From a plasmid: a stretch of 24,491 nt of DNA. Of this stretch, positions 8,056-23,393 are shown one piece after another. The notes under the pieces were generated by a model. It was not told where the DNA came from and searched no databases. It saw nothing but the letters and a program-made list of their open reading frames with translations. A program made the translations under genes and the position numbers. Location of the stretch: the sequence record NC_017345.1; one strand, given 5' to 3'. Within the stretch, counting starts at the first letter, position 1. Each line of letters starts with the position of its first letter.

Positions 8056-8229
8056 ATAGCTTTATCAAGGGTTTATAAACCCTTGATAAATATCATCAAC
8101 CTTTCATAAACCCTTGATAAAAAGGTTGATGGATGTTTATTTTTATTTATTAATCACTTTATTATTAAGCATTATAAGCTTATAATATTTTATCAAGGGT
8201 TTATAAACATTTTATAAAGGGTTGATGAT
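8056..8229. repeat. centromere-like/operator repeats upstream of par (tatcaagggtttataaacccttgata perfect palindrome plus three partial copies)
   Basis: Read directly; located between divergent rep and par. Confidence 0.6.
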
Positions 8230-8972
8230 ATGAAAAGTGTGAAAAAGTTGAGTGAAGAATTAGGGGTTAGTAAGCAAACGATTTTTAATAATATTAAGCG
8301 ATTGAATATAGAGACAATAAAACAGGAAAACACTTCGTTTATTAAAGAAGATACCGATATAGAAAAAATCATTCAAAGAGTAAATGAAAATAAAAAGAAA
8401 TATGGTTTTGAAAGTACTACTGAAGACAAACAAAAAAAGGGTCGGATAATATTAATTTTGAATCGAAAAGCGATGCTCAAATAGTAGAAATCCTTAAAAA
8501 ACAGATTGATACTTTAAATAATCAAATTGAAAAACAAGAAAGTCGTCATGAAACAACAATTGAATTTTACAGAAAAGAGTTGCAAGAAAGGTCAAAATTG
8601 CTTGAAAATCAGCAAGTTCTGGCATTAGAGAGTAATAAAAAGATTCAAAAATTAGAAAATCAATTAGAAAAAGAAAAACACCTTAATTATCCCTTTGATA
8701 CATCTACTAACACTAGACAAAACGTTGATGCACAAGAAAAAACATATACTACTAATCCTGTAAATATTAACAGAGATCAGGAAGAAACTAAAGAAACAGA
8801 GATTCAATATAAGGATATATCTGGAAGTCAAAGCGACGAAAGTACACAAGGTGAAGAAGCAAAAAGAGAAGACGTTCCAGCTAATCTAAATGACAATGAT
8901 AGTGATATAGAAGAAAAGAGTGAAGAAACGGAACCTAAAAAGGGGTTTTGGAGTCGTTTGTTTGGTAGCTAA
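8230..8972 (+). pseudogene. par: pSK1-type Par partitioning protein (~247 aa; N-terminal HTH, C-terminal charged/coiled region) interrupted by a -1 frameshift in an A7 run (8432-8438)
   Basis: Track ORFs 8230-8484 (frame 1) and 8580-8972 (frame 0) are one gene. Frame 0 is open from 8430 to 8972, and reading A8 instead of A7 gives …TEDKQKKGSDNINFESKSDAQIVEILKK… continuous. Confidence 0.7.
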
Positions 8973-9563: not shown

Positions 9564-9659
9564 ATGAATGAAATTCTTGTTCACATCATGACAACAGTAA
9601 TTAGTGGTTGTCTGGTCACGTTATTTGGTTATTGGCTCCATAAACGCGATAAAAAATAG
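9564..9659 (+). CDS. type I toxin peptide of the Fst/PepA1 (sprA) family, 31 aa MNEILVHIMTTVISGCLVTLFGYWLHKRDKK
   Basis: Similar to the second copy at 23301-23393 and to remembered PepA1 (MLIFVHIIAPVISGCAIAFFSYWLSRRNTK). Preceded by a TATAAT promoter and a 5'UTR in which cgtctatctctc can pair with gagaggagg (Shine-Dalgarno sequestration). Confidence 0.7.
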   Translation: MNEILVHIMTTVISGCLVTLFGYWLHKRDKK

Positions 9660-9684
9660 CATAGACGACTAAGTCAATTCACCA

Positions 9685-9752
9685 AAAAACCCCGAACTAC
9701 GGCCAATAGTTCGGGGTTTGGTGCGTTTACAAACGAAATTCTTGTTACTTTT
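9685..9752 (-). ncRNA. SprA-AS-like antitoxin RNA: promoter TTTACA-17-TATACT on the minus strand, bidirectional terminator 9688-9722; carries acaagaatttcgtt complementary to the toxin start-codon region
   Basis: Promoter and terminator read directly. 12-14 nt complementarity to 9566-9580 (aatgaaattcttgt) fits the established trans-like pairing mode of SprA1AS to the sprA1 RBS/start. Confidence 0.6.
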
Positions 9753-9873: not shown

Positions 9874-10215
9874 TCAATCCAAGGACGAATGAATAGCCCA
9901 AACTAAGAATACGGCAACAGGAAAGAAAAGCCACCAAAAATCATAAAGAAAATCAACTATGAAAGGTACCCGGTTGTTCTCTCTATAATTTCCCTCTAAA
10001 ATAACTTTTTTAAAACATGTATCTCCTTTAATTAAATGATCTATAGTAATTCCAAATAAGTCACTCATAGCAATCAAAATATCTAAGGAAGGGTAATTTT
10101 TAGCACTTTCCCATTTAGAAACACTTTGTCTGGAAACCTTTAATATATTGGCTAATTCCTCTTGAGACCATCCTTTTAATTCTCTCTGTTCTTTTATAGC
10201 TTCAGCTAATTTCAT
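9874..10215 (-). CDS. XRE-family HTH regulator with C-terminal transmembrane anchor (113 aa)
   Basis: N-terminal LKGWSQEELANILKVSRQSVSKWESAKNYPSLDILIAMSDLFGITIDHLI is a Cro/C1 HTH; C-terminal FIVDFLYDFWWLFFPVAVFLVWAI is a TM helix. Confidence 0.7.
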   Translation of the reverse strand: MKLAEAIKEQRELKGWSQEELANILKVSRQSVSKWESAKNYPSLDILIAMSDLFGITIDHLIKGDTCFKKVILEGNYRENNRVPFIVDFLYDFWWLFFPVAVFLVWAIHSSLD

Positions 10216-10396
10216 AAAATCACTCCTTAACTCAAACTATAAAAATTAAAGCTACTAACACTACTTAATAAGTTTCTATTATTCCCAATTCAGTTCAAGC
10301 TGTTTTAAAAAAGCCTCTCGTTCTTTCTCTAATTGTGGATCGTAATCTCTTTGATGTTGCTTTTTCTCTATGTGTAACTATATCTATCAATATTTC

Positions 10397-11023
10397 TTAA
10401 TTTCTAAGCTCAGAAATATTGACTATGACATCAAATCGTTTCGCAAGATCTAAATCATGTGTTACGACAATCATAGTTTTATTTTCATCAAGTAGATTTA
10501 ATAATAAATCAATGACTATTTTTCCGTTTTTCGTATCTAATGACCCAGTAGGTTCATCAGCTAAAATGATTTTCGGATCTTTTAATATAAGTCTCGCCAA
10601 CGCAACTCTTTGCTGTTCACCACCACTTAGAGAATTAACAATCCTCTTGATATCTAAATCTAGGCTGACCTTTTTTAATACTTCTTTCTTTAAGTTCATA
10701 TTATCTTTTTTATTCTTTTTGAACTTTAGGGCTAAATCTAAATTTTGACTGATTGTTTGATTTTCAAGTAAAGCAAAATTTTGAAACAAATACCCTAACG
10801 TATATCTATAAAAATCGACTTTCTTTTTTAGTAACTTATCTTCAATATATATGCTCCCTTGTGATACATCTTCGAACCCAGCGATTATGTTAAGTAAAGT
10901 AGATTTTCCAGCGCCACTTTCTCCAACTAAAGCATATGATTTTCCTTTTTCAAAATTAAAATTACATTCGTCTAAAATGTTTTTATTACCTTTTTTTACA
11001 AAAACATTTTCAAGTTTTATCAC
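10397..11023 (-). CDS. ABC transporter ATP-binding protein (208 aa)
   Basis: Walker A GESGAGKST, signature LSGGEQQRVALAR, Walker B ILADEPTGSLD. Confidence 0.9.
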   Translation of the reverse strand: MIKLENVFVKKGNKNILDECNFNFEKGKSYALVGESGAGKSTLLNIIAGFEDVSQGSIYIEDKLLKKKVDFYRYTLGYLFQNFALLENQTISQNLDLALKFKKNKKDNMNLKKEVLKKVSLDLDIKRIVNSLSGGEQQRVALARLILKDPKIILADEPTGSLDTKNGKIVIDLLLNLLDENKTMIVVTHDLDLAKRFDVIVNISELRN

Positions 11024-11034
11024 TATCGGTCACC

Positions 11035-11346
11035 TCATTTTAAAAAGCTAGGAATATCTTTTGTAATGTATTCTATCGAACGCACATATTTCCCTTTATG
11101 ATTTACTTTCACATATTCTTTTGTAGGATCATAACCTAAAAAATCCAATTTATAACTCTTTTTTTCTCCATTTTTAGAGTATACAGTTATATTTCTATAG
11201 TCCTGGGTGTCTTTTGGAACTTTGGCATAAGATACTTTTTCTTTTAACAGTGGGTTAAAACGATCTAAATGCTCGTTTCTAACCAATAACAGACTAAGTA
11301 TGATGATTAATAGTACACTTGTTACAATAATTAAAGTTCTTTTCAT
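11035..11346 (-). CDS. small signal-anchored protein (103 aa), possibly YxeA/DUF1093-like accessory to the ABC transporter
   Basis: N-terminal TM/signal anchor, then a hydrophilic K/Y-rich domain; in an operon between the permease and the ATPase. The family assignment is from memory only. Confidence 0.45.
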   Translation of the reverse strand: MKRTLIIVTSVLLIIILSLLLVRNEHLDRFNPLLKEKVSYAKVPKDTQDYRNITVYSKNGEKKSYKLDFLGYDPTKEYVKVNHKGKYVRSIEYITKDIPSFLK

Positions 11347-11349
11347 TGT

Positions 11350-13284
11350 TTAAATCTCCCTCATTAAATCTTTAAAGTATTTTTCAAGATATTTAATATA
11401 AGCAATTTGAAGTAAATATTGAATAATAGCAATAGACACTATTATGAGTAGTAATATCTTTGAACAAAATAAAATATGCGTAGTGTAAGCTAACATAATA
11501 GAAAGTAAGATAGAAATCGTTAAATAACGTACATTACTGCTGAATAATGAATAACCATGAATTTTTCTTAATAATAGTTGCTTTCTATTCCAACTAAAAT
11601 ATTGAATTGTTTCAAATACAGTAGCTATCAAAAGAATGAAAACGTTAATTATGATAGTAACTATTGTTATTATCATTTTTGTTTTCGTTTCATTTATTTC
11701 ATTTAGCACAGAATCCTTGTAATTAGTTATACCGCTAATTTCTTCTGCTAGGTGATTATCTTTAAGCAACTGTTTAAGTGTATCTAAATCTTTAAATAGA
11801 TATCCACCTTGAGAAACAGCAGCTAAATAAAAATCTCCTGTTAAATCGTCAGGCGTCAACAACAGTACTATTGGAGAATCTAGATACCCAAATTTCAAAT
11901 TAGTTGTGCGATCAAAAGAAAAAACAGATACGTTTTTTGACAGTACTTGCACATCTACTTTTTTGTTTTGTTGCTTTTGAAAGTCAATCCATCCTTGGTG
12001 ATTTTTTTGAATTTCAGATTTTTGAGATTGTAACCTTGGAGGAATAAACACGTTTATTTTATCCGAATGATTGGCAATCATTTTAAAATCAGGATTTATA
12101 TTTTTATAGAAATTCAGAAAATTGTTATTGATAAAAAAGACATTGCCATTTTCAGGAATGTAATTATTTTTATCGGGATTGGCTATATTATTATTCTTTA
12201 AAAGCAATCCTCCAAGTTGTTCGCTTTTCTTAATTAAGTTGTATACATTAGTTTCTAAAATTTGTTTTTCTTCTAAGTTTCTAATATTAGGAGAAATCTC
12301 TAACGTATAGTAATTCTCTAGCTTTTGCCAGATTTTTTCAGAGTCATATATATTTTTTAACTTCGTATAAGCATTTAAATTTTGTGCAAGTAAAAAAGAT
12401 AGTATTAGAACCATGGTACATTTGGTGAAGGTACCCATAAATATTGAAAACTTATATCCTTTTTTCCCTTTTAAGGTTAATGGAATATTTAACTTCAAAA
12501 GAAGACTATACGAAATCAGCCACAACAATGTAGTAATACAAGCAAAAACAAAAAGCAACACGATAAACCTACGAACAAACATTAAGAAATCCAATTCTAA
12601 ATTGGCTATATGAATGATTAATATATTAGCAATAAAGAAAATGGAGGTAAGTATTAGCCAATAGATGATTTTTAGATGAATATTATGAAAAATAATGCGT
12701 GTAGTTGAAAAGCCATGTAGCTTTTGAACAGCATAAAATTTTAAATGATGTCCTCTGTCATATAAGTAATACAAAAGATATAATACTCCTAAGAATATGA
12801 AAGGCACTAATAAATCATTATCTATGACTAATTCAAAAAATAATATGTTTCTATTTATGTATTCAACTTCAGATGTTAAACCAGCTTTTTTTAATTCACT
12901 CGTAAGCTCTTCCACATTGAAATGTTCGCCAATAATATAATACTTTCCTTTTATCTCTCTGTTTAATAAATCTGATGGAGTTAAAAGTGATGTTTTATTA
13001 CGTATAAGGTCAGAATTATTTCGTTTTGAGTTGAAAACAAAAAATTCTTGTTTATTATCAAAATCTTTAACGGACCTAATTATTTGTATATTTTGATTTT
13101 TGGCGCCTGATTCAATGGCATCTAACACTTTTGATTTACTGTTAGATTTATCCCAATTAGAGATTGTTAAAATATTGGAACTTTCAGGTATAATTTCTTC
13201 ACTTTCTTTGAAGAAAAATAAAAATAATAGCCCTGAAATTAATAGTAAAGTACTAAAATCTAAAAATAATTTGAATTTTTTCAT
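11350..13284 (-). CDS. bacteriocin-associated integral membrane protein (644 aa; DUF1430/FtsX-like permease), putative immunity/transport partner of the lactococcin-972-like bacteriocin
   Basis: Large polytopic protein with two TM clusters separated by an extracytoplasmic domain, directly downstream of an Lcn972-family prepeptide and upstream of an ABC ATPase. This matches the lclA-lclB-lclC organisation. Confidence 0.7.
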   Translation of the reverse strand: MKKFKLFLDFSTLLLISGLLFLFFFKESEEIIPESSNILTISNWDKSNSKSKVLDAIESGAKNQNIQIIRSVKDFDNKQEFFVFNSKRNNSDLIRNKTSLLTPSDLLNREIKGKYYIIGEHFNVEELTSELKKAGLTSEVEYINRNILFFELVIDNDLLVPFIFLGVLYLLYYLYDRGHHLKFYAVQKLHGFSTTRIIFHNIHLKIIYWLILTSIFFIANILIIHIANLELDFLMFVRRFIVLLFVFACITTLLWLISYSLLLKLNIPLTLKGKKGYKFSIFMGTFTKCTMVLILSFLLAQNLNAYTKLKNIYDSEKIWQKLENYYTLEISPNIRNLEEKQILETNVYNLIKKSEQLGGLLLKNNNIANPDKNNYIPENGNVFFINNNFLNFYKNINPDFKMIANHSDKINVFIPPRLQSQKSEIQKNHQGWIDFQKQQNKKVDVQVLSKNVSVFSFDRTTNLKFGYLDSPIVLLLTPDDLTGDFYLAAVSQGGYLFKDLDTLKQLLKDNHLAEEISGITNYKDSVLNEINETKTKMIITIVTIIINVFILLIATVFETIQYFSWNRKQLLLRKIHGYSLFSSNVRYLTISILLSIMLAYTTHILFCSKILLLIIVSIAIIQYLLQIAYIKYLEKYFKDLMREI

Positions 13285-13296
13285 ATTGCCTCTTTC

Positions 13297-13340
13297 AAGA
13301 GAATAGACAGAATTAAGTTTACTTAATTCTGTCTATTCTC
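13297..13340 (-). terminator. 19-bp perfect-stem hairpin (gagaatagacagaattaag / cttaattctgtctattctc) between the bacteriocin structural gene and the permease gene; attenuator/terminator
   Basis: Read directly. Typical partial terminator separating a highly expressed bacteriocin gene from immunity/export genes. Confidence 0.6.
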
Positions 13341-13358
13341 CTTAATTAATATATGTAA

Positions 13359-13652
13359 TTAGTGAAGACTATAAAATGTTTTGTTTCCACCCCAAGCCTT
13401 TGGAGCAGATGCCTTAGATTGAACACCAGGTCGAGCAACACCACTAAAAGATGAATACTTTCCTACTGCTGTTGAGCCATGGTTTCTTTTATTATGACTA
13501 TAATGAGACCATACGTAATGTTTTCCAATACCATGACTCCAAACACCACCAGCTAAATGTACTGTTGCAGCTTCAGCTTTATAAGTTACACCTAATAAAG
13601 TGCCGAATAAGATTGTACTAGCAATACAACTAGAAACAAATTTCTTTTTCAT
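13359..13652 (-). CDS. lactococcin 972-family bacteriocin precursor (97 aa; Sec signal peptide cleaved after AEA, mature ~69 aa)
   Basis: Signal peptide MKKKFVSSCIASTILFGTLLGVTYKAEA; mature GGVWSHGIGKHYVWSHYSHNKRNHGSTAVG…KTFYSLH resembles Lcn972 (GTWQHGYGVSSAYSNYHHGSKTHSATVV…FYYNFW). Confidence 0.75.
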   Translation of the reverse strand: MKKKFVSSCIASTILFGTLLGVTYKAEAATVHLAGGVWSHGIGKHYVWSHYSHNKRNHGSTAVGKYSSFSGVARPGVQSKASAPKAWGGNKTFYSLH

Positions 13653-13977
13653 AAAAACACTTCCATTTAATATTCTTTATTTATTATAACGAAAATAAAC
13701 AAAATAGAGAATGAGCAAAAATAATCTAAAAGTGTTTTTTCAGCTCTGTTGCTTGCTTTATTCATCTATATATAATATTAACTATCACCTTTAAATTAAC
13801 CACCATTAAACAATGATATGTTAATGTATAAGACACACAATTTCACTGCCCATAATGCACATGATATCGGCTGTCCAAACTGTGACGAAAAGTTAGGGAG
13901 TGTAAGAAAAGGTAGAATAGATTACATAGTTACAAAAAAATAACATAGTTTAAAAATCTTCGTTATTGAGAAAAATA

Positions 13978-14010
13978 TAAAAAAGAGAGGGCAAAAACGC
14001 TCTCTTTTTT
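13978..14010. terminator. terminator hairpin aaaaaagagagggcaaaaacgctctcttttttt downstream of sin
   Basis: Stem + flanking A/T runs on both sides (bidirectional). Confidence 0.5.
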
Positions 14011-14101
14011 TCCTCTCTTATTATTAAAATCTCATAATACATGATTAACATATATTTTGGGACGCTGTGAGAAACGCTCATTTGCATTGACAATCCATTT
14101 A

Positions 14102-14710
14102 TCAAGATAATCCCTTATCATGTTTAATTCTATAAACTGTCTGTCTTGTAATATTAACCTCTTTCGCAATCTTACTAATTGCTTGCCCTTCTTCTAACAT
14201 TTCGACAACTCGATGATAGATAACACGTTTTTGGGGATCTTTCGCGTTCGGTGAATAAAGCAAAGGACGCCCTTTATATACGCCTTTTTCTTTCGCAACT
14301 TGAATCCCTTGCGCTTGTCGACGTTTACTTTCATTTCTCTCTTGTTCTGAAACCATTGCTAATATTTGAATGATTATATCTTTCATAAATTTATCTAATA
14401 ATGGATTGCCAATTACTTCATTCATCATAGGTAAGCTGGTAATCATTAACTGAACGTCTTTTTCTTTTAAATAATTCACAGTTTCAATAATTTCATCATA
14501 GTTACGTCCTAAACGATCAATAGATTCCACAACGAATCGATCTCCCATTCTGACAAAATTGAGAGCTTCTTGAAATATAAATCTATTTTCCACTGACTTT
14601 CCCGACTGTTTCTCTGTAAAGATTTTCTCCACACCAAATGTCTTTAAATTATCCAATTGTCTTTCTAAATTTTGATCTATCGAAGATACTCTTGCATAAC
14701 CTATAATCAT
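14102..14710 (-). CDS. sin: Sin serine recombinase/resolvase (202 aa)
   Basis: [17 protein letters not shown]…[21 protein letters not shown] matches remembered Sin of staphylococcal beta-lactamase plasmids. Confidence 0.9.
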
Positions 14711-23207: not shown

Positions 23208-23272
23208 AACGAAAATGATTAACAATTAATGCACCAATCCCCACACTATTGCAGTAGTGTGGGGATTTTTTC
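23208..23272 (+). ncRNA. SprA1AS-like antitoxin RNA: promoter TTGCAT-18-TATAAT (23181-23210), ~60-nt RNA ending at bidirectional terminator aatccccacactattgcagtagtgtggggatttttt
   Basis: Read directly. The RNA carries aacgaaaatgattaacaa, which matches the DNA around the toxin start codon (23376-23393, gtgaacgaaaatgattagcaa) and so is complementary to the toxin mRNA there. Confidence 0.6.
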
Positions 23273-23300
23273 GATGCTGGCTTATAAAGTCGCCTATTAA

Positions 23301-23393
23301 TTATTTGTTGCGTTTACTAAGCCAATAAGTATAATACGCAACAGCACAGCCACTGATGACTGGTGCTATGATGTGAACGAAAATGATTAGCAA
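23301..23393 (-). CDS. PepA1-like type I toxin, 30 aa (TTG start) MLIIFVHIIAPVISGCAVAYYTYWLSKRNK
   Basis: Near-identical to remembered S. aureus PepA1 (MLIFVHIIAPVISGCAIAFFSYWLSRRNTK). GAGGAGG Shine-Dalgarno; the 5'UTR can fold (cgcctatctctc / gagaggagg) to occlude the RBS; TATAAT promoter at ~23445. Confidence 0.75.
   Translation of the reverse strand: MLIIFVHIIAPVISGCAVAYYTYWLSKRNK

Follow-up and report, generated by a model that had tools for sequence, protein, structure and literature searches.

The plasmid sequence NC_017345.1, analysed here over its full length of 24,491 nucleotides (the window, to which all positions refer), carries at 10397-13720 a four-gene cassette for a bacteriocin of the lactococcin 972 (Lcn972) family. 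We give a probability of about 85% to the reading that this is the self-contained, canonical Lcn972 cassette of a penicillinase plasmid of the pN315/pMW2/pSAS type, and that the next gene on the same strand, encoding an XRE-family helix-turn-helix (HTH) protein with one C-terminal transmembrane (TM) helix (XRE-TM; 9874-10215, minus strand, 113 amino acids), is part of a different module. The original prediction, made from the sequence of this one stretch, had recognised the operon and had paired it with the XRE-TM gene, whose product was proposed to be an unusual one-component membrane sensor. The main value of our analysis lies in the correction of this pairing: adjacency in one plasmid variant hinted at a regulator-operon pair, and this is not supported by the comparative data.

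Genes and products of the cassette

All five minus-strand open reading frames (ORFs) of the region were found in the ORF list with the coordinates and sizes originally predicted. The cassette starts with the gene of the Lcn972-family prepeptide (13359-13652, 97 amino acids), followed by genes for a DUF1430 bacteriocin-associated integral membrane permease (11350-13284, 644 amino acids), a YxeA-family (DUF1093-like) protein with an N-terminal signal anchor (11035-11346, 103 amino acids) and the ATP-binding cassette (ABC) ATPase of the Lcn972 cassette (10397-11023, 208 amino acids, GTG start); all are on the minus strand and the gaps between them are 74, 3 and 11 nucleotides. All four proteins score above the curated NCBIfam cut-offs of Lcn972 cassette families, and the Pfam and NCBIfam profiles, together with the peptide fold, bear out the gene order that had been proposed for the operon.

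The prepeptide scored above the cut-off of both Lcn972 profiles, with 53.5 bits against PF09683 (Lactococcin_972; cut-off 22) and 103.6 bits against TIGR01653 (cut-off 32.1), the latter over the full length (1-96), and its family assignment thus stands; the pairwise phmmer match to Lcn972 itself (2LGN) was weak (E=0.004). The hydrophobic core of residues 5-23 and an AEA motif followed by A, with the cut after residue 28, predict a Sec signal of residues 1-28 and a mature peptide of 69 amino acids; the signal-peptidase cleavage site was assigned by rule from the sequence. An AlphaFold2 model, built on 45 relatives, has seven strands and predicted local distance difference test (pLDDT) values of 95-98 over residues 31-97, with the strands beginning at residue 29 and residues 1-22 being without structure. 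The model has the all-beta sandwich of the 2LGN type and superposes on 2LGN in Foldseek with a probability of 1.00, a target-normalised TM-score of 0.78 and a root mean square deviation of 2.1 Å over 66 columns. Its best match in the PDB is 9HKJ ('Formosin D'), a name that gave nothing relevant in a literature search. The peptide ORF is intact and 97-100% conserved across about 400 plasmids, and the ratio of nonsynonymous to synonymous substitution rates (dN/dS) of the gene is 0.12 in comparison with the S. hyicus orthologue and 0.09 in comparison with the common S. aureus allele, values that show purifying selection on it.

The permease matched DUF1430 with 68.6 bits in Pfam and TIGR01654 with 237.4 bits (cut-off 189.35). 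Its hydropathy profile has about eight TM segments and two large extracytoplasmic domains, with the pattern of one TM segment, an extracytoplasmic domain and three TM segments occurring twice. A sequence search of the PDB with the permease gave no informative match, and neither the FtsX model of Pfam, even at E<=10, nor the MacB model found it. The AlphaFold2 model, made from an alignment of seven sequences, has a pLDDT of 67; its top 19 PDB matches in Foldseek all belong to the type VII superfamily, among them YbbAP (E=3e-5) and BceAB (2e-4), and further matches are MacB, LolCDE, YtrEF, FtsEX and HrtBA. The model suggests that the permease resembles the type VII (MacB/FtsX/BceB-like) permeases of ABC transporters.

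For the 103-amino-acid protein, whose residues 1-27 are hydrophobic, the score against TIGR01655 (YxeA) was 60.9 bits (cut-off 29.65). Of the two profile checks that had been proposed for the membrane proteins, that of the permease with DUF1430 was positive and that of the small protein with DUF1093 was negative in Pfam (no match at E<=0.01); its link to this family is through TIGR01655 and PDB entry 3NPP, a 'DUF1093 family protein' (E=0.008). The ATPase matched TIGR03608 with 261.6 bits (cut-off 254.85) and ABC_tran with 119 bits; the next-best families, FtsE, LolD, DevA, YbbA and MacB, each stayed below their own cut-offs.

The region 13653-13720 (minus strand) is, from a reading of its sequence, the probable promoter and ribosome-binding site (RBS) of the operon. 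It contains a perfect -10 box (TATAAT, 13683-13688) and the RBS GGAAGTG (13658-13664), and, 17 nucleotides upstream of the -10 box, a weak -35 box (TTCTCT), which explains why a consensus scan did not call the promoter, as only three of the six positions match the consensus. An alignment of the lcn972 promoters of S. aureus plasmids with that of S. hyicus showed nothing conserved except the RBS, and no convincing inverted or direct repeat turned up when this promoter and the window's sequence upstream of XRE were searched. Further upstream, directly downstream of the resolvase gene (14102-14710), lies a bidirectional terminator-like hairpin (13980-14011); this predicted structure insulates the lcn972 promoter region against upstream transcription. 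Divergent from the promoter is an ORF of 41 amino acids with a CxxC motif (MLMYKTHNFTAHNAHDIGCPNCDEKLGSVRKGRIDYIVTKK; 13818-13943, plus strand), which has no match in Pfam; the PLSDB gene tables of two matching plasmids, themselves incomplete, do not list it. ORFs on the strand opposite the operon (for example 10419-10748, plus strand) were rejected as genes, as they are located within well-supported genes. No match within the locus was found in an Rfam search at the gathering threshold.

The 19-bp stem that had been described between the peptide and the permease genes is real, but its designation as an attenuator did not hold. The hairpin (13297-13342, minus strand), defined by fold and conservation, has 19 perfect Watson-Crick pairs, or 21 pairs if a terminal A-U and one G-U pair are included, and a loop of four nucleotides; in its 101-nucleotide context it reaches -33.4 kcal/mol (z = -7.4, none of 200 shuffled sequences being equally stable). 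The 3' arm adjoins the RBS of the permease gene and is followed by GAAAGAGGCAAUAUG instead of a U-tract, and the scan for intrinsic terminators made no call. The hairpin is identical in plasmid SAP072A and is retained in S. hyicus, with one compensatory change (U-A to C-G) and one mismatch, and a strong analogous hairpin is present at the same place after the peptide gene of Bacillus toyonensis. By this comparison a structured element after the structural gene is a conserved feature of the cassette, and since the structure is conserved, some role at the RNA level is likely. The hairpin probably tunes the ratio of peptide to immunity transcripts; it would set a high peptide:immunity ratio by partial termination, by 3' stabilisation or by processing.

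Plasmid records and the position of the XRE-TM gene

A region of 4.3 kb that includes the cassette has matches in 446 staphylococcal plasmid records, and in 379 of these the match covers 80% or more of the region; it is 100% identical in many S. aureus plasmids and 95-96% identical in the common type. This agrees with the prediction of a staphylococcal and plasmid-borne cassette. The locus is carried by pN315, pMW2 and pSAS, the plasmids of strains N315, MW2 and MSSA476, and more than 400 S. aureus plasmids are already annotated with the cassette, the RefSeq labels being lactococcin 972 family bacteriocin, DUF1430 protein, YxeA family protein, putative bacteriocin export ABC transporter and helix-turn-helix regulator. 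The locus is therefore already known as the standard Lcn972 cassette of common S. aureus penicillinase plasmids, and no new annotation is needed.

Lcn972-type peptides had been called rare outside lactococci, which is not the case: a single-sequence phmmer search with the peptide found 139 distinct clusters at 50% identity. Related peptide genes are present on plasmids of Bacillus, Macrococcus and Streptomyces and on the S. hyicus chromosome, and active members of the family are known from pneumococci (PMC11796350) and from Mediterraneibacter gnavus (PMC12345188). A strain with the operon, S. equorum KS1039, is inhibitory to S. aureus (PMC5810056). The word-index protein searches were shallow (16 matches for the peptide and 8 for the permease), and the permease-based alignment of loci gave three loci; the other cassettes were found by individual look-ups. 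Two of the three loci, on contigs labelled as actinomycetes, L020 and L021 (Nonomuraea sp. and Marmoricola endophyticus), have permease genes with 95-97% identity to that of S. aureus, and these are, judged by this identity, probably S. aureus plasmid contamination of the actinomycete assemblies.

Beyond S. aureus and S. argenteus, the nearest cassette is that of the S. hyicus chromosome (peptide 71% identical), which lies between rplI and dnaB, beside an IS200-like gene, and consists of the genes for the peptide, the DUF1430 permease, a 102-amino-acid protein and the ABC ATPase. The same four genes are present at two more distant loci (L023 and L026; peptides 48-49% identical), with a protein of about 100 amino acids in the same position in all three cassettes, and a Bacillus toyonensis plasmid has a three-gene version. 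The XRE-TM gene was absent at each of these four cassettes. Judged by gene content across these lineages, the four genes form a unit that is complete in itself. In L026, an Rgg-type regulator (HTH_3 and Rgg_C; 5018-5887 of L026) lies ahead of the cassette, resembling the ComR-type regulator at the pneumococcal scb locus; as far as the sequences compared here go, the regulators of Lcn972 cassettes differ between lineages.

In SAP072A, the cassette and the XRE-TM gene are separated: the gene order is Fst, XRE, Rep_3, two hypothetical genes, about 960 bp and the ABC ATPase, with the Rep_3 gene 86 bp upstream of the XRE gene and on the same strand. The blastn breakpoints are at 10343-10364 of the window, where a homology of 22 bp matches both sides of a 2.6-kb segment that plasmids of the pN315/pMW2 type contain. 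The 181-bp spacer between the ATPase and XRE-TM genes of the window encodes EKKQHQRDYDPQLEKEREAFLKQLELNWE followed by a stop codon, which is the C-terminus of the Rep_3 protein of SAP072A, and its DNA matches RepB-family rep genes of other staphylococcal plasmids; the remnant (10279-10368, minus strand), which is outside the bacteriocin system, has retained the last 29 codons and the stop. Among the plasmid records, 347 have the intact rep-XRE junction and 71 have the junction of the window. From this comparison, XRE-TM is next to the cassette in the window as the result of a secondary deletion of about 2.6 kb that included the Rep_3 gene, and the short repeat suggests a deletion by short-homology recombination. 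On gene order, the XRE-TM gene belongs to a plasmid-backbone module of rep, XRE-TM and Fst toxin genes. The XRE segment has a nucleotide identity of 88.7% between the plasmid types, as compared to 96% for the operon.

The description of the 113-amino-acid protein as a Cro/C1-type HTH with a C-terminal TM helix was correct (HTH_3: 62 bits; hydropathy): there is one hydrophobic helix, at residues ~85-112, followed by about five residues, and the hydrophobic segment is conserved in homologues. It is not an unusual format, however, as transmembrane transcription regulators are widespread (PMC10269533), BcrR being a well-studied example. Homologues with 54-64% identity come from contigs of plasmid size (2.4-11 kb) that carry no bacteriocin genes, namely a 3.7-kb Rep_1 plasmid, a 2.4-kb S. 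hominis plasmid, a contig with a CPBP protease as neighbour and an 11.4-kb S. succinus contig; on the S. hominis plasmid (L011) and the 3.7-kb Rep_1 plasmid (L013/L014) the XRE protein is almost the sole accessory gene. Homologues with about 50% identity are found beside a YefM/YoeB pair and on Mammaliicoccus and Paenibacillus chromosomes, and a version of 150 amino acids with two TM helices is widespread in Bacillus and Paenibacillus.

From the upstream regions of these homologues we derived a palindrome, GCAAC-N5-GTTGC, and then searched for it in the window and in SAP072A. It is located about 85 nucleotides upstream of genes of the XRE-TM family from Staphylococcus to Paenibacillus, for example at 2187-2201 of contig L010 and in the upstream regions of L013, L011, L016, L005, L002 and L007. 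SAP072A has a single perfect copy, in front of its XRE gene; the allele of the window has lost it through a deletion of about 16 bp (~10270-10300). With up to one mismatch, there was no copy anywhere in the window, the lcn972 promoter included, and with two mismatches there were five matches, as compared to 3.6 expected by chance; the lcn972 promoter lacks the palindrome in both plasmid types. The palindrome is probably the auto-operator of XRE-TM genes, and XRE-TM is most likely an autoregulated, membrane-tethered repressor.

Function of the cassette and its plasmid setting

By analogy with Lcn972 in lactococci, the prepeptide would be exported by Sec and cleaved after Ala28, and the 69-amino-acid beta-sandwich peptide would bind lipid II and block septation in plasmid-free staphylococci. 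Sec-dependent secretion is assumed for the Lcn972 family, and streptococcin B is independent of ComAB/BlpAB (PMC11796350, PMC12345188). As Lcn972-type peptides are thought to leave the cell via Sec (PMC11796350), the transporter most likely serves self-immunity on the outside of the membrane: rather than exporting the peptide, the permease and ATPase, with the membrane-anchored YxeA protein as a helper, would remove it from its target at the outer face in an ATP-driven, BceAB-like manner. On a plasmid, the cassette would serve in competition and in the killing of plasmid-free segregants, as has been shown for pBL1; in L. lactis, where it kills segregants, the Lcn972 cluster keeps otherwise unstable plasmids in the population over 200 generations or more (PMC4055356).

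The original prediction had also stated that the plasmid-borne staphylococcal copy has little experimental characterisation, and this is a fair description, since in the papers searched the S. aureus copy is known from genome mining only. It was called 'yet uncharacterized' for pMW2 (PMC6491766, 2019), was treated by bioinformatics only in a later paper (PMC10941976, 2024) and is likewise genome-mined and uncharacterised in PMC12455999; our literature search found no functional study of the S. aureus peptide in searchable papers. An isolate with the S. aureus gene showed no antimicrobial production (PMC12328743).

The proposal that XRE-TM is a BcrR-like one-component sensor, which would make expression of the operon depend on an envelope signal or on the bacteriocin peptide, draws on real features of the locus. 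In the window variant the gene follows the operon immediately and in the same orientation, with no intervening terminator. Its HTH has 43% identity to the HTH of BcrR, a sensor of an antibiotic of the lipid II cycle and an activator of an ABC transporter operon, and the transmembrane regulators listed in PMC10269533 include one for bacteriocin synthesis, BreG. The XRE gene and the cassette are also found together on almost all of these S. aureus plasmids, with 408 staphylococcal plasmid matches for the peptide and 456 for XRE, and 427 of all XRE matches are at least 80% identical. We nevertheless regard this coupling as very unlikely, because the adjacency is derived (in 347 of about 420 plasmids the Rep_3 gene and about 2.6 kb lie between XRE and the operon), neither the orthologous S. 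hyicus cassette nor the three further Lcn972 cassettes have the gene, its homologues occur in contexts without bacteriocin genes, the family palindrome is missing at the lcn972 promoter of both plasmid types, the XRE segment is the more diverged part and the protein has one TM helix and about five external residues instead of the four TM helices of BcrR. A variant confined to the deletion layout starts from the same adjacency: as XRE is downstream of the immunity genes without a terminator and has lost its own palindrome, it may be co-transcribed with the operon and have acquired a new role in the feedback control of bacteriocin and immunity expression at the membrane; more broadly, XRE-TM could stand for an undescribed class of membrane-tethered plasmid DNA-binding proteins, active in copy-number control, membrane anchoring or intramembrane sensing. 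To this, too, we assign a very small probability.

Two other alternatives concern the cassette itself. It could be mainly an immunity or resistance module, that is, a BceAB-like pump against foreign Lcn972-type peptides whose own peptide is poorly expressed or inactive; the permease model is indeed closest to BceAB and YbbAP, the papers searched report no activity for the S. aureus peptide, the isolate of PMC12328743 carried the gene without antimicrobial production and the scb locus is reduced to its B and C genes in 27.5% of pneumococcal genomes (PMC11796350). Against this stand an ORF that is intact and almost invariant across about 400 plasmids at a dN/dS of 0.09-0.12, the perfect -10 box and good RBS, and the high-confidence Lcn972 fold, and the negative assay was limited to its own indicator strains and conditions; we consider this module improbable. 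The other alternative is compatible with a canonical bacteriocin cassette and differs from it in emphasis: the primary selected role could be plasmid addiction rather than competition between strains. Stabilisation of plasmids by the Lcn972 cluster over at least 200 generations in L. lactis (PMC4055356), the position of the cassette in the plasmid backbone beside the Fst toxin-antitoxin locus and replication genes, and its retention on hundreds of blaZ plasmids all fit this idea, but the S. hyicus cassette is chromosomal, where addiction makes no sense, and a secreted peptide hits all neighbours and not only segregants. We hold a primary role in addiction to be possible, though doubtful.

Several points weigh against a self-contained bacteriocin cassette with XRE-TM in a separate module. 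Nearly all these plasmids carry both the XRE gene and the cassette, and in the layout of the window the scan placed no terminator between 10397 and 9874. Transcription beyond the ATPase and XRE genes would first meet a terminator at 9683-9717 (minus strand), a strong intrinsic one (predicted fold with a 12-bp GC-rich stem and U6) that is shared convergently with the Fst gene. Co-transcription of XRE with the operon and a regulation in trans are therefore possible, and the palindrome is a predicted operator. Secretion, activity and lipid II binding of the S. aureus peptide are argued from its family, and immunity by target protection from analogous transporters; the permease model is of moderate confidence (pLDDT 67, TM-scores of about 0.3-0.36). 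Lastly, the hairpin has no U-tract, and it may act by termination, stabilisation or processing alike.

A large fraction of the penicillinase plasmids of clinical S. aureus carries the cassette, which bears on competition and on plasmid persistence, where it represents a modest gap in knowledge.

The rest of the window is a composite penicillinase plasmid with an IS257-like transposase, an integrated Rep_1 replicon, cadD/cadX, RepA_N, a resolvase and blaZ-blaR1-blaI with Tn552-type transposition genes. Convergent on the XRE gene is the ORF of an Fst-family type I toxin (MNEILVHIMTTVISGCLVTLFGYWLHKRDKK; 9564-9659, plus strand), annotated as Fst in identical plasmids, and a second Fst antitoxin RNA is encoded at 23250-23350 (plus strand; Rfam RF01797, 88.5 bits). 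The DUF536 gene (8202-8972, plus strand) is split into two frames in the window (ORFs 8230-8484 and 8580-8972); it encodes one protein of 256 amino acids in a plasmid with a bacteriocin region 100% identical to that of the window, and on this comparison the split is a frameshift, a pseudogene or a sequencing error.

Comparison with known systems

Among S. aureus plasmids, the window represents a minority layout (71 records) of the locus of pN315, pMW2, pSAS and SAP072A, in which Rep_3 is deleted and the palindrome upstream of XRE is lost. The prototype of the family is the Lcn972 operon of L. lactis pBL1 (lcn972-orf2-orf3), which, as here, has the gene of a Sec-type prepeptide first and those of a DUF1430 permease and an ABC ATPase behind it. 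Both are plasmid-borne and their peptides share the profile and the predicted beta-sandwich fold, with an identity of about 26-30% in the mature part and about six extra N-terminal residues in the peptide of the window. Unlike the pBL1 operon, the cassette of the window has an extra gene of the YxeA family between the permease and ATPase genes, its host is a Staphylococcus and its activity and target are predicted from its genes. Streptococcin B (scbABC) of S. pneumoniae and mediterrocin of M. gnavus are also members of the Lcn972 family with permease and ABC genes downstream, and their inhibitory activity has been shown by experiment (PMC11796350, PMC12345188). Their loci are chromosomal, whereas that of the window is on a plasmid, and scb is under the control of ComE and a ComR-type regulator; neither a regulator of this kind nor a site for its binding is evident in the window.

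The closest known relative in design to XRE-TM is BcrR, the bacitracin sensor of Enterococcus faecalis. The 43% identity between the two HTH domains extends over 65 residues and includes the SKWESGK-YP motif, and in both proteins a membrane-spanning part follows. BcrR is larger, though, with 204 amino acids and four TM helices (a figure from the literature) as compared to 113 amino acids and one TM helix, and bcrR lies directly upstream of its target operon bcrABD, whereas the XRE gene of the window has no conserved synteny to the cassette and no operator shared with it.

The transporter compares best with the type VII systems BceAB, YbbAP and MacB. These have two FtsX-like halves of four helices with large extracytoplasmic domains, as is predicted for the permease of the window, and the ATPase of the window is of the FtsE/LolD type that is also found in type VII systems; both kinds of transporter are tied to peptides that bind within the lipid II cycle. 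A further parallel is presumably offered by B. subtilis, where we take yxeA to lie downstream of yxdLM, a paralogue of BceAB. The differences are the number of TM segments, about eight in the permease of the window as opposed to 10 in type VII permeases, and that the cassette is not accompanied by a two-component system of the BceRS type.

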